From: an uncultured delta proteobacterium | Lineage (GTDB): Bacteria; Desulfobacterota; Binatia; Binatales; Binataceae | Assembly (NCBI GenBank): GCA_963724395.1 | Contig: CAVRUK010000005.1 | Location: 1,001,261-1,065,260, forward strand | Direction of reading: 5' to 3' | Length of the DNA stretch: 64,000 nucleotides | Shown here: piece by piece, positions 21,136 through 36,828 of the stretch | How positions within the stretch are numbered: position 1 is the first letter of the stretch | Layout of the letters: each line of letters opens with the position of its first letter | Notes under the pieces: generated by a model | What the model was told of the DNA's origin: nothing | Database searches by the model: none | Seen by the model: the letters and a program-made list of their open reading frames with translations, nothing else | Translations under genes and position numbers: made by a program

Positions 21136-21996
21136 ATGTCTGATCAGCACGGAATCGAAGAAATACTCCGTCAGGTCGTCAGCCGCGTCTCGAAGATCGA
21201 CGGCGTTCAAGCGATCGTGCTCGGCGGATCGCGGGCGCGCGGTACCGCCGACGAACGATCGGATATCGATCTCGGAATCTACTACGACGGCGCGCACCCG
21301 TTCTCGACGGTGGCTCTGGGAGCGGCTGCGCAAGAATTGGACGATCGTCATAGCGACGGCTTGGTGACCTCATTCGGCGACTGGGGGCCCGGTGTAAACG
21401 GCGGCGGATGGCTCGAGATTCGGGGCCATCACGTGGATTTCCTCTACCGCGAAATTGGCGCCGTGCGCGAGGCGATCGAGGACTGCATCGCCGGTCGCCC
21501 GCGCAGCATCTATCAACTCGGTCATCCGCTCGGATTTCATATGCAGATCTACGCGGGCGAGATTCACGTATGCCGTCCGCTCTTCGATCCAACCGGCGCG
21601 GTTGCCAAGATCAAGGCCCTGGTACGCGAGTATCCTGAAAAATTTCGAGCAGCCGCCGTCACCAAGCATCTGTTTGACGCGGAGTTCGAACTTTCGATCG
21701 CTGCGAAGCCGGTCGAGCGCGCCGACGTGATGTACGTGTCGGGATGCCTGTTTCGCGCGGCGGGTTTCATGACGCTCGTGCTGTACGCACTGAATCGCAG
21801 ATTTTATCTCAACGAGAAAGGCGCGTTCGCAGAGTCGCAGCGATTCGCGATCAAGCCGGCGCGCTTTCACGATACGGTCGCAAGCGCGTTGGGACGCATC
21901 GGTACGACGCCGGCGGAGCTGTCGGCGAGCGTCGTCAGCTTCCAGAGCCTGGCTGCGGAATTGCGGCAGCTCGCAACGAGCGAAGGCGCGCTCTAG
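21136..21996 (+). CDS. Pol-beta-superfamily nucleotidyltransferase with a C-terminal helical domain
   Basis: 'LGGSRARGTADERSDIDLGIYYDG' minimal NTase motif; 286 aa. Confidence 0.55.
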   Translation: MSDQHGIEEILRQVVSRVSKIDGVQAIVLGGSRARGTADERSDIDLGIYYDGAHPFSTVALGAAAQELDDRHSDGLVTSFGDWGPGVNGGGWLEIRGHHVDFLYREIGAVREAIEDCIAGRPRSIYQLGHPLGFHMQIYAGEIHVCRPLFDPTGAVAKIKALVREYPEKFRAAAVTKHLFDAEFELSIAAKPVERADVMYVSGCLFRAAGFMTLVLYALNRRFYLNEKGAFAESQRFAIKPARFHDTVASALGRIGTTPAELSASVVSFQSLAAELRQLATSEGAL

Positions 21997-22484
21997 CGGT
22001 TGCGTCCTTTCAGCGCGCGCTCGATTTCGCGATCTGACGCCCTGCGCGCGAGCACGTCGCGCTTATCGTAGGTGTGCTTGCCCTTGGCGAGCCCCAGTTC
22101 AACCTTGGCGCGTCCGTTTTTGAAATAGATCTTCAGCGGCACGATCGAATAACCCTTCTCGCGCACGCGGCCCCACAGGCGATCGATCTCGCGGCGATGC
22201 ATCAAAAGTTTTCGCGCGCGAGTTTCCTTGTGGCTGAACTGCCCCGCGGGAGCGTAGGCGCCGATATGAACGCTCTCGAGGAACGCTTCGCCGTTTTTGA
22301 TGCGCGCGTAACTGTCGCGCAAATTCGCGCGATGCGCCCGCAGCGACTTGACTTCCGTGCCAGTGAGCGCGAGGCCGGCCTCGAGCGTCTCCTCGATGAA
22401 GAAATCGTGCCGCGCCTTGCGGTTGTCGACGACCAGATCGAATCCGTCGCCGGAAGCTTTGCCGTTGCGGGAGTCGCGTGCCAT
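21993..22484 (-). CDS. smpB: SsrA-binding protein
   Basis: 'DLVVDNRKARHDFFIEETLEAGLALTGTEVKSLR...KLLMHRREIDRL...IVPLKIYFKNGRAKVELGLAKGK' is canonical SmpB; start at 'MARDS'. Confidence 0.85.
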   Translation of the reverse strand: MARDSRNGKASGDGFDLVVDNRKARHDFFIEETLEAGLALTGTEVKSLRAHRANLRDSYARIKNGEAFLESVHIGAYAPAGQFSHKETRARKLLMHRREIDRLWGRVREKGYSIVPLKIYFKNGRAKVELGLAKGKHTYDKRDVLARRASDREIERALKGRNR

Positions 22485-22594
22485 CGCATGCGAGTCTATC
22501 CGCCTCATCGGCATGGTTGCGAACGCGCCCCCTGAACCTTAGATTAGATGATGTAACCGTTTCGAACTGGCCTCGATTGAAGACCCACTATCGT

Positions 22595-22951
22595 GGGGGC
22601 GAACTGGATTCGACGAAGACAACATGGCCATGGTCGCACGCCGGGTGCTGTCGACCCGTAAAACTGGCAGACTGCGAAATTTACCCGCAGACAATAACGG
22701 TTACGCTCTGGCGGCCTAAGGGCCGCTAGCGTCCCGCCGCTGCTCGCCCATGGCAGCGGGTCGGGGCGTCATTTAGTGGGCTAGGGAACCGCAGTTCACC
22801 GGCTGGGCGGCGTCCCGAAATTTCAGCCGGCTGGCGTCAGCAAAGCCCGTCTGTGGGCGTTTCGGGCGCGAGCTAAAATTCGCAGACTAAGCGTGTAGTG
22901 GCCGTCGCCGGAAGGCCTTCGGACGGGGGTTCAATTCCCCCCGCCTCCACC
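22595..22951 (+). ncRNA. ssrA: tmRNA (SsrA), 357 nt, tag reading frame GCA GAC AAT AAC GGT TAC GCT CTG GCG GCC TAA (ADNNGYALAA)
   Basis: 5' 'GGGGGCGAACTGGATTCGACG' and 3' 'GGACGGGGGTTCAATTCCCCCCGCCTCCACCA' form an acceptor stem with a G3:U pair; the T-arm, the tag ORF ending ...YALAA-stop and the divergent smpB all fit. Confidence 0.85.
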
Positions 22952-23003
22952 AATTTCGAGTGCCTGACTGACGAAGCTGTTGTCGATCCGGCCATCAATC
23001 AAG

Positions 23004-23741: not shown

Positions 23742-25530
<1,789 letters not shown>

Positions 25531-26286: not shown

Positions 26287-27120
26287 ATGATTCCTGCCAA
26301 TGCCGCGCCGCTTGCAATCGCACTCCTGGGACTGGTCCTTGGAATGCGCCATGCCACCGATCCCGATCACGTAATCGCCGTCACCACGATTCTCAGCCGC
26401 GAGCGGCGTCTGGCGGTCGCCGCGCGCATCGGCGTCGTATGGGGACTCGGCCACACGCTGACCGTGCTGATAGTGGGCGCCGCGATTATAGTTTTCAAAA
26501 TTGCTATTCCGACCAGGCTCGGACTCTCGATGGAATTCGCGGTCGCGATCGTGCTGATTCTGCTCGGCGCGGGCGCGGCCGCGGGACTGGTCCGCAACGC
26601 GGCAACTCGAATGCGCCGCGGCTCGTCGAAGCACGAAGAATTGATCGTCCACACGCACGCGCACGCTCACGACGGCGGCGTGCATCTGCACCCGCACGTT
26701 CACGTTGCTGCTCATGAAGATGCCGGTGACGCGATGCATCACGACCATCGCATCCCGGCTGACGCACTGCCGACGTTTGCCGCGCGGCGGCCGCTGCTGC
26801 GATCATTCGCAGTGGGACTCGTGCACGGACTGGCGGGTAGCGCCGCGATTGCGCTGCTGGTGCTGAGCGCGATTACGGATCCGTTGTGGGCGACGCTCTA
26901 TCTCGCGATTTTCTGCGTCGGCACGATCATCGGTATGGCGCTCATCACGACCGCCATCGCCACCCCGTTCATAGCCGTGTCGAAGCGCGCGTCGTGGATT
27001 CATCAGGGACTCGTCACCGGCTCGGGCCTGCTGAGTTTCGGCTTCGGCCTGTTCCTCGCTTATCAGATCGGTTTCGTTGACCATCTGTTCGGTGGCGTTG
27101 CTACCTGGATTCCGCAATAA
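26287..27120 (+). CDS. Nickel/cobalt efflux permease, NicO/RcnA family
   Basis: 'RHATDPDHVIAVTTI' (H-x4-DH signature), six TM segments, central His-rich loop 'HTHAHAHDGGVHLHPHVHVAAHEDAGDAMHHDH'. Confidence 0.7.
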   Translation: MIPANAAPLAIALLGLVLGMRHATDPDHVIAVTTILSRERRLAVAARIGVVWGLGHTLTVLIVGAAIIVFKIAIPTRLGLSMEFAVAIVLILLGAGAAAGLVRNAATRMRRGSSKHEELIVHTHAHAHDGGVHLHPHVHVAAHEDAGDAMHHDHRIPADALPTFAARRPLLRSFAVGLVHGLAGSAAIALLVLSAITDPLWATLYLAIFCVGTIIGMALITTAIATPFIAVSKRASWIHQGLVTGSGLLSFGFGLFLAYQIGFVDHLFGGVATWIPQ

Positions 27121-27141: not shown

Positions 27142-27831
27142 ATGATCGACTTGTACTATTGGCCGACACCTAACGGGCACAAGATAACGATTTTTCTTCA
27201 GGAGACCGGCCTCGACTACAAGATCGTGCCCGTGAATATCCGCAAGGGTGAGCAGTTCCAGCCCGAGTTCCTCAAGATCAGCCCGAACAACCGCATGCCC
27301 GCGATCATCGACCACGACGGTCCGGGCGGGAAGCCGTTGGCGCTGTTCGAGTCGGGCGCGATCCTGCTCTACCTGGCCGAGAAGACCGGTAAGTTCATGC
27401 CGTCGGAGACTCGTGCGCGCTACAACGTCGTGCAGTGGCTGATGTTCCAGATGGGGGGCGTCGGACCGATGTTCGGGCAGCGAGGACATTTTATGCGCGC
27501 CGCGCCGGAGAAGATCCCGTACGCGATCGAACGCTACACCAACGAATCGCGACGCCTGCTCAACGTGATCGAAAATCGTCTCGCCGAGAGCGCGTACCTG
27601 GCGGGAGAATACTCGATCGCCGACATGGCGACCTATCCGTGGGTGGTCGGAACCCGGCGCGAGCCCGAGCAGTTGGAGAGCCGCCCGAATTTCAAGCGAT
27701 GGCTCGACGCGATCGGCGAGCGTCCCGCCGTCAAGCGGGGAGTCGCGGTGATGGCCGATCTGCCGCCCGAGCCGCTCGACGACGAAGCGCGCTCGATACT
27801 CTACGGCGCCAAGCAGTTCGAGCGCCGCTAG
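27142..27831 (+). CDS. Nu-class glutathione S-transferase, YfcG-like (paralog of 7707..8432)
   Basis: 'MIDLYYWPTPNGHKITIFLQE...ISPNNRMPAIIDHDGPGGKPLALFESGAILLYLAEKTG'. Confidence 0.8.
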   Translation: MIDLYYWPTPNGHKITIFLQETGLDYKIVPVNIRKGEQFQPEFLKISPNNRMPAIIDHDGPGGKPLALFESGAILLYLAEKTGKFMPSETRARYNVVQWLMFQMGGVGPMFGQRGHFMRAAPEKIPYAIERYTNESRRLLNVIENRLAESAYLAGEYSIADMATYPWVVGTRREPEQLESRPNFKRWLDAIGERPAVKRGVAVMADLPPEPLDDEARSILYGAKQFERR

Positions 27832-27871: not shown

Positions 27872-28651
27872 TTGGGGCGAATTTGGGCTAAGTGTCATTC
27901 TATGCGCTCAAGTCGTCGCCGCCATGATGGGTTAATTCTCGCGAGTCTGTTTCTAATAGCCGTCTGTGCGATGGCTGGCGCGCGCACTGCCGGAGCGGAG
28001 AGCGCCGCAGGGACGATTTTCGGCGCTACCGGACCAGTTCAGATCCAGCGCGGTGGCTCCACCATGCCCGCCACACCGGGCACGCCGGTTATCCAGGGCG
28101 ATCAGATCGTTGCAGGCGCTGATGGGCAAGCCGTCATCATGCTGTCCGACGGGAGCAAGCTCGAACTCAGGCCTGCGACCACAATCACGCTCGACCAGTA
28201 TGTAAATGGTGGCGCCACGCCGACGCGGATCGGCCTGACCTCCGGCATACTGAAATCTGATGTGAATGGGACTGACGCAGCTCCGGCCAACTTCCAGGTG
28301 CATACGCCCAACGCAATCGTGACTGCACGCGGCACGACCTTCTACACCTCCTACACTCCAAGCTCACCTCAAACCGGCAACCTTCCTGGCGTCTCCCATT
28401 ACACCGAGGTGGCCGTGATCGAGGGCGCGGTCAATTTGGCGCAGGCTGCCGCTCCAGCCGGCGGCGTTGAGGTCGCGCAGGGAACGACAGGCACGGTACC
28501 GGGCGGAGCAGCGCCGCAGAGCAACAAACGACATTTCCCAACGTGCTCCAACCCGCCTACTTCAAAGGATCAGTGCAAAAATGGCGGCTGGCGGCAATTC
28601 GGTTGCTTCAAGAACCAGGGCCAGTGCGTCAGTTACGTCGAGCACGAATAG
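27872..28651 (+). CDS. Secreted FecR-domain protein with a Cys-rich C-terminus
   Basis: Signal peptide; 'GDQIVAGADGQAVIMLSDGSKLELRPATTITL' FecR-like beta-sandwich pattern; C-terminal 'CSNPPTSKDQCKNGGWRQFGCFKNQGQCVSYVEHE'. Confidence 0.45.
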   Translation: MGRIWAKCHSMRSSRRRHDGLILASLFLIAVCAMAGARTAGAESAAGTIFGATGPVQIQRGGSTMPATPGTPVIQGDQIVAGADGQAVIMLSDGSKLELRPATTITLDQYVNGGATPTRIGLTSGILKSDVNGTDAAPANFQVHTPNAIVTARGTTFYTSYTPSSPQTGNLPGVSHYTEVAVIEGAVNLAQAAAPAGGVEVAQGTTGTVPGGAAPQSNKRHFPTCSNPPTSKDQCKNGGWRQFGCFKNQGQCVSYVEHE

Positions 28652-28762: not shown

Positions 28763-30844
28763 ATGCACTGGCGCAAGCGCGGCATCTTTCGGGTTGCCGG
28801 AATCGGCATCCTTTTATCATTGCTGTTGACGGCATGTCCGTCGGGCACAAACGCGCAGGAAGCATCGCCTGATCCCGGGAACCTAAGCCAGCACAAGAAC
28901 GCAGACATTCCGGCGGGTGGCCTTGAAGCTCCTGAAACCGGCGGAACGTTAGGCGGAAACCTGCTGGTCAATGGAGACTTCACCGAAGGGTTGGAGGGTT
29001 GGCATGCGTCGGCGCGATGCTTCCTGCCCGACCCGTCGACGCGCGCTCCAAACGGTCACCCAAGCCTCAAGGTAGAGAATCCCGACTCGTGCAGGCCGTC
29101 AGCGAGGACCGCGGTCAACGAGTTCGTGGCTCCGCCCGGCGTTTATTCGATCGGCGGGGAAATCAAAACTCCCGATCTGACGAAAAAGCTGATCGCCGGA
29201 GCGCAAATGGATTTGTTCACCGGCTGTGAGACGGAATTGGTGAACGGCGCCGGCGATTGGCAACAGCTCGTCGGCAAGCACTGCGTCGTCGCGCCCGGCA
29301 CGAAATCCCGCTTTCGGCTCGCAATCAATGGCAAGACATCGAGCCCCGCCTGGTTCGCGAACATGTACGTGCGAAGGGAACTCGGCCCGCTGTTCCGCAT
29401 CTACATGCTGTATCCGAATTATCGCGGATACCTGTTCGCCGGCCAGTCTCATGAAGTGCGCGCGGCGGTGACACTCAATCACGACGCCGGCCTGCGCCGC
29501 GAAGACCTGGTCTTTCAGCTCGAGGCGGTGCGCGTCGATTCGGGAGCAAAGACCGCTCACGCGTACAGCTCACCTGCCTATGATTTCACGGCGACGCTCG
29601 ATTTCGGCCCTCTCGCTGCGGGCGTTTACCAGGTGCGCGGAATCCTCTTGGACAGGAGCGGGAAGGTTCTTTTCGAGCAGCCGCCCTACCGGGTCGTGAA
29701 GGTCGATGCAGACCCCGGCACGCTCTTGAAGGCGTGGATCGACGATCGCAACCTCGCGCATTTCATCGACGGCAACCCTCACTTCGTGCTCGGAATCTAC
29801 GACACCACCGGATGGTCGTACAGCCCGGCTTCCTTCGAGAAGGAGCTGGCCGCGATCGCGCAGGCGCCAATCAACATGATCATCAACTATTTCCTCACCA
29901 ATGCGCCGACCCCGGCGATTACCGCATACACCACTGCGATGAAGCAGTTCGGAATAACGTTTTTGCCGGACGTGAGCGGCTTCCATACGGGCAACCGTGC
30001 TTTCCCTAAAGGTGTCGCCGACGAGTTTGGAACCGACGACCCCGACGAGCTGATCACCGACTACGTCTCCACCTTCAAGTCCGACCGCGGCGTGGTGGGA
30101 TACTACGTTCAGGACGAGCCGGAGATCGCCGCGCAGCCGGAAACTTTTCGCCAGAATTTGCTGATCAAGGCCGCCGATCCCGCGGGCTTCAACCTGGCGG
30201 TGCTCGACCGGCCGCACGACCTGCCGATGTGGAAGGACTCGGTGGACGTCCTGGGCGTCGACCCGTATCCGGTGTGGCTGCCTGTCGATAACGACATCGG
30301 TGAAGTGGGCGATTGGACCAGGATGGCGGTGAATGCGGTCCATGATTCCAGACCAGTGTGGACGATCATCCAGTTTTTCCAGGCGGACGCGATGTCGGAG
30401 TGGCCGACCGAACAGCAACTGCACGACATGAGCTGGATGGCGATCGCGGAGGGCGCCAACGGAGTCTTCTACTGGTCGCACGGCATCCGTGCCCTCGGGT
30501 GGGTGAGGGATCCGGTGCAGCACGCGGCGCTTTGGGGGTCGCTAATCCGGGTGACCAAAGAGATCAAGGATCTAGAGCCGGTACTGCTGCGGCCCGACGA
30601 GCAAGTCCTGAACGCCAAGCCTTCCAGGGACATCGTCACACGCGAGAAAACCGGAGCGGACGGCGCGCGTTATGTGATTGCGTACAATCATGGAAGCGCG
30701 TTCGCGCCAGCGAGGTTCGTCCTCCAATCGCCCGCGCGATCGGTGACAGTCCGCCGCGGGATGGTAAAGGTTGAGCTCAAGGATGGCCTGACTTTCGACG
30801 ACACCTTCGCCGGCTACGAAGCGAAAGTCTACGAAATCCGGTAG
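28763..30844 (+). CDS. Lipoprotein with an N-terminal CBM-like domain and a large C-terminal domain (possible glycoside hydrolase)
   Basis: Lipobox 'LLLTACPSG'; 'GNLLVNGDFTEGLEGWH' is typical of CenC-type carbohydrate-binding modules; the rest is unassigned. Confidence 0.4.
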   Translation: MHWRKRGIFRVAGIGILLSLLLTACPSGTNAQEASPDPGNLSQHKNADIPAGGLEAPETGGTLGGNLLVNGDFTEGLEGWHASARCFLPDPSTRAPNGHPSLKVENPDSCRPSARTAVNEFVAPPGVYSIGGEIKTPDLTKKLIAGAQMDLFTGCETELVNGAGDWQQLVGKHCVVAPGTKSRFRLAINGKTSSPAWFANMYVRRELGPLFRIYMLYPNYRGYLFAGQSHEVRAAVTLNHDAGLRREDLVFQLEAVRVDSGAKTAHAYSSPAYDFTATLDFGPLAAGVYQVRGILLDRSGKVLFEQPPYRVVKVDADPGTLLKAWIDDRNLAHFIDGNPHFVLGIYDTTGWSYSPASFEKELAAIAQAPINMIINYFLTNAPTPAITAYTTAMKQFGITFLPDVSGFHTGNRAFPKGVADEFGTDDPDELITDYVSTFKSDRGVVGYYVQDEPEIAAQPETFRQNLLIKAADPAGFNLAVLDRPHDLPMWKDSVDVLGVDPYPVWLPVDNDIGEVGDWTRMAVNAVHDSRPVWTIIQFFQADAMSEWPTEQQLHDMSWMAIAEGANGVFYWSHGIRALGWVRDPVQHAALWGSLIRVTKEIKDLEPVLLRPDEQVLNAKPSRDIVTREKTGADGARYVIAYNHGSAFAPARFVLQSPARSVTVRRGMVKVELKDGLTFDDTFAGYEAKVYEIR

Positions 30845-31034: not shown

Positions 31035-32764
31035 CTAGTGATGCGGGCCGCCTCCTCCATGCGGTGCTTCCGGATGTCCCCCGCCGCCCCCACCGCCATG
31101 CGGTGCTGCAGCAGGATGTCCGCCTCCACCGCCCGCGCCACCACCGCCGCCGCCGCGATGCTCGAATGCCTGCTCCTGCTGAGCATGCTGGCGCTCAAAG
31201 GATTGCATTTGCTGCGCATGCTGACGCTGCATGTTCTGCTGCTGCGCGAAATGCTGGCGTTGAGCCTCCTGTTGCTCGGCCGCATGCTGACGCGCGAGCG
31301 CCTGCGTTTCATTCTGCTGGCGGCGCAGGAGTTCCGCTGACTGCTGCTCGTGACGATCCTCGACTTGCCGCCAATTTGCCCCATTGTCCTCTGGAGCGGC
31401 CTTCCTGGGCTGCTCCGCTTCCCGCACATGCTCCTGCAGATGCTGCCGCTCGAAATTCTCGGTCTCCGCTTCATGCTTTTGCTGAAGCTGCCGTAATTGC
31501 TCCGCGCGATTGCGCTCGGACTCCTGCTGCTGCTGCGCGCGATTGCGCTCGAGCTCCTGCATCTCGACGTTATGCTGGCGCTGGAGCGCCTCTTCTTGCA
31601 CGCCATGTTCGCGCGCTACCGACTCGCGCATCGCGCCAGTCCAATCGGGATGATGCTCCATCGCCCAGGTGGGATTCTTTTGCGCCCACCAGTGGACGTC
31701 GTGCCAGACATGCTTGTCGTCGTAGTCGCCCTTCCATTCGGGATGATGCTGATCGGCCCACGCCGCATCATGATTGTGCCACCAGGTGTCGTTGTGCCAG
31801 ACGTGTTTGTCGTCGAAGTCACCCCACCAGTTGGGATGATTCTCGCGCACCCAGTCAGGCTTGGTCGCCCACCAATAACTTGCCGGACGCCATATTCTGC
31901 GATCGTCGAACGCGCCCCACCAATCGGGATGATTCTCGCGCACCCAGTCAGGCCGGTTCTGCCACCACCATCCCGCGGGCCGCCAAACGTGCCCGTCGTC
32001 GAAGTCGCCCCACCAGTCGGGATGATTCTGGCGGCACCAGTCGGGGTGAAACTGCCACCACCATCCCGCCGGGCGCCAGTAGTGGTGATCGTCGAAGTCT
32101 CCCCACCAATCCGGGTGATGCTCGCGAACCCAATCGGGATGATACTGGTACCACCACGGCGCCGCGTACCAGACGCCTTCGTAGTAGTCGCCCCACCAAT
32201 CCGGATGATGCGCGATTACCCACTCGGGCTGGAGCTGCCACCACCACGGCGCGGGATACCACAAATCGTCCCAATCGTCGCCCCACCATTCCGGGTGATT
32301 CTGCAATACCCAGTCGCGGTGGCGATGCCACCACCATCCCGCCGGATACCAGACGCCATTGTCAGGCGCGCCCCACCATTCCGGATGGTACTGCTGAACC
32401 CATTGCGGCTGATATTGATACCACCAACTCGCGGGATACCACGCTCCCTGGTAGTAATCGCCCCACCATTCGGGATGATGTAGTCGCACCCACGCGGGCT
32501 GCGAATCCCACCACCACCACGCGGGATGCCAGATGTGATCCTCGTCGAAATCGCCCCACCATTCAGGGTGATGCACCTTGACCCAGTCGGGCTGATGCTC
32601 CCACCACCAGGCGGCTTCGCGAAAGGTATGCCCGTTGTCGTAATCCCCCCAAGCAGGAACAGGCGGCAAGGGCGAAGGCCAAGGCCGGTACTGCGCGAAC
32701 GCGGGCGTAGCCAGCAGAAGGAGAACCGTACTCGCCGCCAGCAAACCCTTGATTCTGGTCATCG
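31035..32764 (-). CDS. Secreted tryptophan-rich tandem-repeat protein: signal peptide, ~11.5 x 30-aa 'HHP(D/E)WWGDFDDxHxWRPAGWWWQxxPDWVRE' repeats, Q/E-rich coiled-coil region, Gly/His-rich C-terminal tail
   Basis: Translation of the minus-strand ORF; start chosen at 'MTRIKGLLAASTVLLLLATPAFAQ'; repeat periodicity of 90 bp is visible at the DNA level from ~31560 to 32650. Confidence 0.7.
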
Positions 32765-33182
32765 ACGCACCCCAGTTAATCGCAAGTAAATCGCATCGCA
32801 AGCCAATAAACTTCGCCAAATCACACTTAATATATGATACGTATCGCCGCAAATAGTCGTTTACAGACAAAACCGCTGCCGCTCATTTAGTCATCACGAC
32901 GAAGCAAGCACCGCGAGCGCGGCAATCTCTCAGTTTCAATTGCGGGCTCTTCCCCTCTCCCTGCAAGGGAGAGGATGAAGGTGAGGGTCCGATTACAGCG
33001 CGCTATTCTGCGCGCGATTCAAGATTCTGCCTCTTCTCCGAACCCGTATCCGGAGGTTATGCAAAGTTCCCCCTCCGCTCGACAAGGGGATCTTTCACTT
33101 GACACCAGAGAGCGATTTGCCAATCTCGCTCCATTCGTCCGATGGCCCGGGCTACTGAGCGCATCTTTCGGACGTTGACGAG

Positions 33183-34124
33183 TTGGGGAGGGACTGGGTG
33201 ACAATCTGCATAGTAGCTCGTTCAACCGAGAAGGGCGGTTCGTTTGTCGTGGCTGGCGACCGGCTCTTTTCTTATGGCGGAGTATATCTCTACGACAGTA
33301 TTTCACTTAAGAGACTTCCCATCTCGTATGACCGTCGCTGGCACTGCATGTTTGCTGGCGATGTTGCGCGCGTCATGCCACTAGTGAGATTGGTCAGAAA
33401 AGATCTAGGCGTGCGCCGACCGCCCTATCGTTACGAACAGATCGAGCGCGCTTGGATAAGGGCGTTCCAAGATTATCGCGAACAACTAGTGAACGACCGA
33501 ATTCTCAGTGTCTATAAGACCGACTTAGCTAGTTACCAGCAAAAGGCCTTGAAGTTTGGGCCGAAGGAATGCGCGAGGATTAACCGACGTATTGAGAGAT
33601 CGCGAATTGGAGTGCAATTTATCGTCTATGGTTATGACGACCTGAATGATTCGCATTTGATGACCCTATGTGAAACGTCCACACAGCCGGTGGTTGTCGA
33701 ATCGATTGATCTTGACCAGGAAGGTTGGGCCGTTATCGGCTGCGGTTCCAAATTTGCACGCGCATCTCTGTTATCAAGTGGACTATTGCCCGTTCATTCT
33801 CAGGTCGAAATGTTGTGCCGTGTATGTGAAGCGAAAATCGAAGCCGAAAAAGACCATCAAGTAGGGAAAGACTCTGCTGCTGGCGTTAGCAATAGGCCAA
33901 CAAGCAAAGTCGCGCCGACAACTGAAGCATTCATTCCAATACCCGCCGTGCAAGCTATCCGTTATGCTCACGCTCAGCGCAAGGACAGACCTTATCCGAA
34001 TGAGTTGTTGACGGCTCTGTCAGACTGCATTGATAGCAACATTACCACTGAGAGAATGCACGAAGCGATCTGGCGAGCAGAGCAGATGATTATCGCTGAA
34101 AATCAAAAGCGCCGTGGACGCTAA
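33183..34124 (+). CDS. Hypothetical protein in a low-GC islet; the N-terminus resembles HslV / proteasome beta-type Ntn-hydrolases
   Basis: 'TICIVARSTEKGGSFVVAGDRL...LKRL...CMFAGDVARV' compared with HslV 'TTIVSVRRNGHVVIAGDGQ...IAGFAGGTADAF'; local GC is much lower than the background. Confidence 0.4.
   Translation: MGRDWVTICIVARSTEKGGSFVVAGDRLFSYGGVYLYDSISLKRLPISYDRRWHCMFAGDVARVMPLVRLVRKDLGVRRPPYRYEQIERAWIRAFQDYREQLVNDRILSVYKTDLASYQQKALKFGPKECARINRRIERSRIGVQFIVYGYDDLNDSHLMTLCETSTQPVVVESIDLDQEGWAVIGCGSKFARASLLSSGLLPVHSQVEMLCRVCEAKIEAEKDHQVGKDSAAGVSNRPTSKVAPTTEAFIPIPAVQAIRYAHAQRKDRPYPNELLTALSDCIDSNITTERMHEAIWRAEQMIIAENQKRRGR

Positions 34125-34430: not shown

Positions 34431-36828
<2,398 letters not shown>

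Follow-up and report, generated by a model that had tools for sequence, protein, structure and literature searches.

Here we describe a gene on the minus strand of a 64,000-nucleotide stretch of DNA (hereafter the window; contig CAVRUK010000005.1 of assembly GCA_963724395.1, positions 1,001,261 to 1,065,260) from an uncultured delta proteobacterium of the Binataceae that encodes an exported protein built around eleven tandem tryptophan-rich modules. On the evidence of sequence comparison, it is a real, old, conserved, Sec-exported, and lineage-restricted gene product, and we class it as a new family whose fold is predicted to be new. As to function, we tentatively favor a scaffold in the periplasm or outside the cell that would bind divalent metals, a reading that we regard as possible rather than probable and that is weighed below against several rivals.

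The coding sequence spans positions 31038..32762 (minus strand; stop codon 31035-31037) and specifies a precursor of 575 amino acids (aa) composed of 12.9% Trp, 9.7% Gln, and 9.0% His. A longer open reading frame (ORF), 31035-32870 on the same strand, is present in the ORF list of the window and its translation opens with a non-conserved extension of 36 aa; because every relative begins at the codon that corresponds to the ATG at 32762 (the Met of an MxRIK motif), we take this codon as the start, and the TTG at 32870 is probably not used. The precursor is organized in the order that a preliminary description of this DNA, made by a model from the letters alone, had given, i.e., signal peptide, Trp repeats, Q/E-rich helical region, and Gly/His tail. 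The Sec-type signal peptide, read from the sequence (aa 1-23, MTRIKGLLAASTVLLLLATPAFA followed by QY; 32694..32762, minus strand), combines a basic n-region with a hydrophobic core and a cleavage site between AxA and Q, and equivalents are found in homologues. Since there is no lipobox Cys, it is not a lipoprotein signal, and the C-terminal sorting signals PEP-CTERM, LPXTG, and GlyGly-CTERM were dropped as candidates because the C-terminus has no hydrophobic segment. The absence of both a lipobox and any membrane or cell-wall sorting signal therefore indicates a soluble periplasmic or extracellular protein. Next comes a Pro-rich N-terminal cap (aa 24-38, QYRPWPSPLPPVPAW; 32649..32693, minus strand), recognized by alignment conservation and in the model, that is conserved as (Y/F)xPWPxPxPPxPxW in alignments A1-A3 and modeled as coil with a predicted local distance difference test score (pLDDT) of about 75-88. 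It is followed by exactly eleven Trp/His/Asp modules, where about 11.5 repeats had been counted before (31641..32648, minus strand; each module starts with a Gly, from 32648 down to 31730), by a helical region of 163 aa rich in Q, E, R, and H (aa 375-537; 31152..31640, minus strand), delimited by 11-residue repeats and predicted helices, and by a Gly/His/Pro tail of 38 aa (aa 538-575, GGGGGGAGGGGGHPAAAPHGGGGGGGHPEAPHGGGGPHH; 31038..31151, minus strand), delimited by sequence and a pLDDT below 40. A scan around the gene found neither promoter-like sites nor minus-strand terminator-like sites.

Relatives of the protein are encoded at 44 loci in a scan that covered one genome per prokaryotic species. 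The preliminary description had reckoned that an absence of homologues combined with frameshifts in related genomes would betray an untranslated frame; instead, the ORF is intact in at least 34 of the 44 loci (459-789 aa, same architecture), and the number of modules in intact proteins varies from 7 to 11 (11 in 15 proteins, 10 in 3, 9 in 7, 8 in 7, and 7 in 2). Nearly all of these loci are labeled Candidatus Binatus or Binataceae or carry older "delta proteobacterium" or "Proteobacteria" labels of metagenome-assembled genomes (MAGs), with the Binatus lineage being Binataceae, Binatales, Binatia, Candidatus Binatota. The best matches to the window protein, at 81-89% identity, place the window in Ca. 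Binatus, three genomes contain two paralogues each, and the long form is found only in Binataceae. At the remaining loci the gene is cut by a contig end or frameshifted, the latter mostly in MFD-labeled MAG contigs (L014 is a SPRUCE MAG). In the ENA metagenome contigs of P0002 and P0003, neighboring genes such as yidC are split as well, and the frameshifts therefore point to assembly or sequencing errors. For five orthologues, the ratio of nonsynonymous to synonymous substitution rates (dN/dS, Nei-Gojobori) amounts to 0.15-0.22 overall; the modules alone give 0.12-0.15 and the helical region 0.18-0.43, which makes the module domain the most conserved part with the lowest dN/dS. One might still suppose that there is no functional protein at all and that the frame either arose by chance across GC-rich repetitive DNA or belongs to a pseudogene in decay, given the several overlapping ORFs of more than 300 aa in other frames and on the opposite strand and the frameshifts at some related loci. 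This idea is refuted, with a negligible chance of being right, by the purifying selection in frame, the number of intact loci, and the conservation of both signal peptide and module order.

The preliminary description had further portrayed the repeats as near-perfect and the array as recently homogenized. The repeats are indeed tandem, Trp-rich, and about 30 aa long with a 90-bp period in the DNA (periods of 90 and 93 bp with 70-71% matches in Tandem Repeats Finder), but pairwise protein identity among the modules of the window averages only 51% (range 33-80%). Homogenization is contradicted by the finding that each window module i is closest to module i of its orthologues and not to its own neighbors: Diagonal versus off-diagonal identities are 89% versus 52% for L005, 77% versus 52% for L017, and 67-68% versus 52-54% for the distant L018, L019, and L021, so that modules are 67-89% identical to their positional counterparts and about 52% identical to those next to them. 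Because this positional orthology has been kept, the array predates these species, and the count of 11 modules persists down to 50-58% identity.

No known family accounts for any of this, as the preliminary description had surmised. The whole protein matched none of the 24,736 Pfam-A models and no NCBIfam family at E<=10, a sequence search of PDB chains returned only low-complexity coiled-coil noise, and structure searches gave no fold match to known structures. A profile of the helical region had no significant match in the PDB (best E 0.1, to unrelated coiled-coil proteins) and retrieved nothing but fragments of the Trp-module family from 5.8 billion proteins, and a survey of the literature on Trp-rich repeats and periplasmic Trp-rich metal proteins found nothing relevant. 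The LTXXQ, WXG100, and YXWGXG-like patterns had already been set aside from the letters, which the searches bear out: There was no Pfam match at E<=10 to the LTXXQ/CpxP-Spy-ZraP group (PF07813, PF13801) and no Spy, CpxP, or ZraP chain in the PDB, and likewise no Pfam-A match at E<=10 to CW_binding_1, WXG100, YXWGXW/WXXGXW, or the GWYPD repeats of DUF2510 type. An EF-hand or lanthanide-binding loop was rejected by eye only, since the DxDxDG...E spacing of such loops over 12 residues is not seen in the GDxDD hairpin.

What the searches did find is a modest circle of kin. A module-domain profile gave 76 matches in a protein search, and a 30-column profile of the single module (A5), run exhaustively against 1.84 billion cluster representatives, gave 192 proteins at E<=1e-3, including 67 at E<=1e-10. 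Some of these 192 are fragments of the family, and the others are short secreted proteins (70-420 aa) that carry 1-6 modules, mostly 1-4. No enzymatic domain or annotated domain of another kind occurs in any of the matches, and every one goes by the name "hypothetical protein." Small relatives such as P0064, P0059, P0070, and P0073 (170-420 aa) have the 30-aa module in common with the window protein (E 1e-4 to 1e-25 against the module profile), and they likewise possess a signal peptide, a helical region of polar character, and a tail rich in His, but they differ in having linkers of about 10 aa in place of a single Trp between their 1-4 modules and an extra N-terminal helical repeat region of "HPxL/NPxL" type. 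Three of the small relatives are labeled Binatus or Binataceae by NCBI, and some share a Binataceae genome with the long form: P0064 occurs in one MAG together with the long-form locus L033. Their tails are His-rich with unrelated sequences, for example (EHAEHEAYKDQ)n, GHGHGHD, and HDHGGHGHH. As far as these sequences tell, the module, the 11-residue-repeat (hendecad) domain, and their combination are confined to this small set of uncharacterized proteins. In three metagenome proteins (P0045, P0080, P0164), 1-2 Trp modules sit at the C-terminus of a repetitive, "AAQPQLQAQ...PQLTPQG"- and Gly-rich region, which is another uncharacterized architecture using the Trp module.

Each module comprises 29-30 aa plus a one-residue linker (Trp, or Lys after module 10), i.e., a period of 30-31 aa when anchored on HPxW, and follows the consensus GD(Y/F)Dxx(H)xW(H/R)(P/D)AxWWxxxxPxWVxxHHP(E/D)W. 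Three subtypes can be told apart in the window and are arranged as A A B B B B A A A A' A': Type A reads GDFDDxHxW(R/H)PAGWWWQxxPDWVRxxHPxW with a period of 31 aa, type B reads GDYYxGxWYPAxWWxQxQPxWVxxxHPEW with a period of 30 aa and has no hairpin His, and in type A' the WRP is replaced by WHD or WHN. The module domain of 351 aa contains 73 Trp (about 21%) and has a pI of 5.2 and a net charge of about -32; its extinction coefficient is calculated to be about 434,000 per M per cm at 280 nm. Tallied column by column, 433 unique modules consist of 18% Trp, 14% His, and 12.6% Asp with only about 1.5% Leu, Ile, and Met together, and because aliphatic residues are so few, Trp, Tyr/Phe, Val, and Pro would have to build the core of the module. 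Trp is 93-100% conserved at positions 9, 14, 15, 22, and 30, Gly1 is found in 100% and Pro28 in 91% of modules, and acidic residues make up 49-88% at positions 2, 4, 5, 11, 21, and 29. Conserved His residues occupy positions 7 (68%), 10 (56%), 26 (62%), and 27 (96%), so that only the second member of the His pair once thought invariant comes close to being so (the first is Asn in 26% of modules), and His also makes up 25-29% of the otherwise variable positions 6, 16, 18, and 19.

Structure prediction suggests that this sequence folds into a compact unit. AlphaFold2 was run on alignments consisting of metagenome fragments and shifted copies of the window's own modules, and a fragment with the cap and four modules was modeled with a pLDDT of 89 and a predicted template modeling score (pTM) of 0.77, while the full-length model reached a pLDDT of 72 and a pTM of 0.33, at which the geometry between modules is unreliable. 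In both models each module forms a beta-beta-alpha-alpha unit, a beta-hairpin plus two helices of 7 residues, rather than the amyloid or all-beta solenoid fold that had been considered earlier. The modules are predicted to stack into an elongated, strongly acidic rod.

The sheer number of Trp residues raises the question of whether the array itself might be what is functional, e.g., as a conduit for electrons or hole hopping, a sacrificial oxidant sink, or a UV-B screen of the envelope, and stacked indoles might, as an alternative to a metal store, form a charge-conducting wire. The density of Trp in the module domain and the conservation of five Trp positions per module would fit such a role. 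A hydrophobic core explains conserved Trp more simply, however, the locus has no linked gene for a redox partner, haem, or a Cu enzyme, and we consider this purely speculative reading very improbable.

Downstream of the modules, two long helices are predicted at aa 372-450 and 464-536 (pLDDT about 90), with a conserved Trp in the loop between them. The probable coiled coil of the preliminary description is thereby supported in its periodicity and its helices, though the region is 163 and not about 120 aa long. Autocorrelation at a lag of 11 residues is 0.286 in the window against a background of about 0.11, and across the family it averages 0.234, 0.19, and 0.197 at lags of 11, 22, and 33. The 11-residue consensus is H-A-Q-Q-(Q/L/M)-Q-A-L-E-R-Q with His at position 1 in 71% and Leu at position 8 in 47% of repeats, i.e., the region has the 11-residue periodicity and the core residues at a, e, and h that characterize a hendecad coiled coil. 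Positions 1, 5, and 8 correspond to the core positions a, e, and h, and His would therefore line the helix-helix interface every three turns; H12, H97, and H152 of the region are invariant in an alignment of 14 diverse members (A6). In several paralogue groups (L039, L041, L044, L045, L046), the region is exchanged for much longer Ala/Gln/Arg-rich arrays (up to 447 aa in L041) or for repeated ERRASETHRAEASRAE units (L044 and L046), and this stalk is evolutionarily plastic where the modules are conserved. The tail, predicted to be disordered in the full-length AlphaFold model, contains two APHGGG motifs and a C-terminal HH in the window, repeats HxEAPHGGG(G)n in most Ca. Binatus orthologues (1-3 HGG motifs), and varies in sequence across the family, usually with 9-18% His and an end in HH, HR, or GHR.

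A helical hairpin followed by a Gly/His tail recalls ZraP, which carries a C-terminal Gly/His-rich metal-binding tail and is linked to zinc and envelope stress. The protein might accordingly be a periplasmic stress chaperone or sensor accessory of the Spy/CpxP/ZraP kind in which hairpin and tail are the active parts, the modules are accessory, and protonation of His or metal binding would switch the oligomeric state; His at core positions would indeed make the hairpin sensitive to pH or metal. Like ZraP, Spy, and CpxP, the window protein is Sec-exported and predicted to be soluble with a long alpha-helical hairpin, a resemblance of overall architecture. These proteins lack the 350-aa Trp-module domain, however, and the window protein in turn lacks LTXXQ motifs, its helices being formed by His-ladder hendecads. 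Neither an LTXXQ nor a Metal_resist model of Pfam matches at E<=10, a PDB search with the helical profile did not retrieve Spy, CpxP, or ZraP, the same profile yields only family fragments among the 5.8 billion proteins, and the lowest dN/dS of the protein lies in the very domain that would be accessory. We therefore think a chaperone or sensor accessory improbable.

The metal-binding scaffold that we tentatively favor would not be an enzyme but a buffer, store, or scavenger of metal in the envelope. Three types of binding site are envisaged for a large number of divalent transition-metal ions (Cu2+, Ni2+, Zn2+, or Co2+): clusters of Asp and His that lie on the hairpins and in the HHP(E/D) linkers, pairs of His between the two helical arms, and sites of His and backbone amides in the HGGG tail as in the prion octarepeat. 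The Trp residues would be structural and form the core of very small modules instead of a ligand-binding surface, the surface of the rod is predicted to expose 4-6 His and about 5 Asp/Glu per module, and the hendecad hairpin would carry a "His ladder" with His at the same core-facing position every three helical turns. Three observations suggest such multi-site binding. First, His is enriched about six-fold and Asp/Glu two- to three-fold over typical proteins, even at otherwise variable positions as if composition itself were under selection. Second, His-rich tails persist in relatives whose tail sequences are unrelated. Third, the His-Gly-Gly of the tail corresponds to the HGGGW unit in which the prion octarepeat binds Cu(II) through the imidazole of His and the amides of the two Gly that follow it (PMC6721516). 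A His with at least two subsequent Gly, which in the prion protein is the minimal unit for Cu(II), occurs twice in the tail of the window, as HGG(G) in a segment predicted to be flexible, and the APHGGG(G)n repeats of the tail are, like the (PHGGGWGQ)n octarepeats, Gly-rich and disordered. There is no homology between the two, though, the window tail has only two motifs without a Trp after the glycines, and many distant members have none.

Dense, repeated metal-ligand side chains without catalytic motifs are also typical of Hpn, Hpn-like, histidine-rich glycoprotein, and Csp, the copper store of methanotrophs whose four-helix bundle is lined with Cys ligands on the inside. These His-rich stores and Csp are unrelated in sequence to the window protein, in which the putative ligands are His, Asp, and Glu on a Trp-core scaffold and a two-helix hairpin. 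Genes for copper membrane monooxygenases or for lanthanide-dependent XoxF methanol dehydrogenases occur in some Binatales and Bin18 genomes of the Binatota, and [NiFe] hydrogenases appear in the electron-transport scheme predicted for the phylum (PMC8262859), so the handling of metals in the envelope is plausible in these organisms, although no direct link to the Trp-module protein emerged. The adjacency of one small relative to ArsR and ars genes in two contigs is a weak hint in the same direction.

Several points weigh against metal binding. Type-B modules, which make up 4 of the 11 modules in the window and all of those in P0004, lack the Asp/His cluster of the hairpin, N-terminal capping of a helix might be all that the nearly invariant His-Pro-Glu does, and the spatial clustering of module His and Asp is an assumption. 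The helical region spans about 150 to 450 aa across the family and can be Ala/Arg-rich, a variability more in keeping with a spacer than with a well-defined metal site, and the tails of L022, L026, and L041 are poor in His and Gly. The genomic neighborhood adds little: What the preliminary description took for a Ni/Co efflux gene encodes a remote NicO-like membrane protein that scores below threshold (24.2 bits against a cutoff of 27.7 for Pfam NicO; 19.5 against 333 for TIGR00802) and whose gene is convergent to that of the Trp protein, with another gene in between. It adjoins 14 loci, mostly of Ca. Binatus, and is absent near distant family members. Clustering of flanking ORFs revealed no neighbor shared beyond the genus, and no conserved metal-homeostasis neighbor emerged among the 92 immediate neighbors of 26 distant loci, which fall into 89 Pfam families. 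The earlier suggestion of metal binding survives as our best guess, but its link to a nickel gene is not supported. In its most specific form, with a previously unseen fold of the module as a Trp-core beta-beta-alpha-alpha unit and with the eleven-module rod, the His-laddered hairpin, and the octarepeat-like tail jointly forming a high-capacity periplasmic store or scavenger of copper, nickel, or zinc, the model-based proposal is an unlikely one.

Proteins that bind cell walls or glycans are usually built from tandem repeats rich in aromatic residues, and the window protein might be a structural or ligand-binding scaffold of the envelope, a rigid Trp rod that binds peptidoglycan, exopolysaccharide, or aromatic and hydrophobic soil compounds via exposed aromatics, with the variable helical region as a spacer or oligomerizing stalk and the tail as a basic anchor. 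Like CW_binding_1/choline-binding repeats and other aromatic hairpin solenoids, it would combine short (20-30 aa) aromatic repeats containing a beta-hairpin with an elongated superhelix in a secreted protein. At 18-21% Trp, some of these residues are likely exposed to solvent, the length of the helical region and the shifts in its composition between paralogue groups are what stalks exhibit, and a small relative adjoins three OmpA_C-like peptidoglycan-associated lipoproteins while one homologue adjoins the dcw cluster. These neighborhood associations are single, non-recurrent cases, however, there is no fold match and no match to CW_binding_1, SLH, LysM, SPOR, SH3b, or carbohydrate-binding modules in Pfam or NCBIfam at E<=10, and with so little Leu, Ile, and Met in the modules most Trp would be needed for the core. 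On balance we see this scaffold as the main rival of metal binding, slightly less likely than it and likewise possible rather than probable. The probability left over by all these readings belongs to functions not yet thought of.

In its genomic context, the gene is a stand-alone unit, and its surroundings give no functional lead. On the downstream side, a GST-like disulfide oxidoreductase (27142-27831, opposite strand) is convergent to the Trp-protein gene, with the NicO-like membrane protein (26287-27120, opposite strand) beyond it; both are conserved in Ca. Binatus, where the upstream side of the loci comprises an FAD-dependent monooxygenase, a response-regulator protein, and an SDR. The commonest neighbor family at the distant loci is the luciferase-like monooxygenases (6 of 92), and four metagenome homologues adjoin the dcw cluster, the jag/yidC region, tldD/pmbA, or nothing informative. 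In the window, a FecR-like gene (27872-28651) adjoins the Trp-protein gene on the GST side together with a gene for a 693-aa protein with a signal-peptide-like N-terminus and no family match (28763-30844), a pair that is found between the Trp-protein gene and GST only in the window, L005, and L007 and is lacking at this place in other Binatus.

In the stretch 5001-8342 of L054 (also L055-L058), the gene for a two-module relative, P0201 (201 aa), precedes a tandem trio of lipoprotein-like paralogues that all combine a poly-proline linker with a peptidoglycan-binding end of OmpA_C-like type. On two further contigs, the P0201 gene adjoins an ArsR-type HTH_20 regulator and ars-like genes (ACR3/SBF, low-molecular-weight phosphatase).

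Directly upstream of the Trp-protein gene, the GC content drops to 0.49-0.54 between 33000 and 34500, against 0.60-0.65 around it, and this patch is possibly recently acquired DNA. It contains an orphan ORF of 313 aa (33183-34124, plus strand) that has no Pfam, NCBIfam, or PADLOC match and is absent from all 44 related loci; PADLOC also found no match for the neighboring orphan ORFs. An ORF of 764 aa (34455-36749) is probably over-extended, with FAD_binding_3 covering aa 4-345 and most orthologues aligning over only about 370 aa, and a minus-strand ORF at 35670-36410 is conserved in 12 loci. Farther away, a transfer-messenger RNA gene (22595-22952, plus strand; tag ADNNGYALAA) adjoins smpB (21993-22514, minus strand). 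An IS110-family transposase (24359-25438, plus strand) just downstream of it has no counterpart in syntenic Binatus loci, which suggests a strain-specific insertion near ssrA.

What this protein offers is a clearly defined and easily expressed target rather than a settled answer. If the structure prediction holds, the module would be a new repeat fold with a Trp-based core, of interest for protein folding and design, and could serve as a very strong intrinsic ultraviolet or fluorescence probe. Binataceae are abundant, uncultured bacteria of soil and peat, and the Trp-module protein is a conserved signature protein of this family. The wider Binatota have been described from their genomes as methylotrophic and alkane-degrading (PMC8262859). 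If the proposed function is true, a high-capacity metal binder in the envelope would bear on how the Binataceae handle copper, nickel, or zinc.

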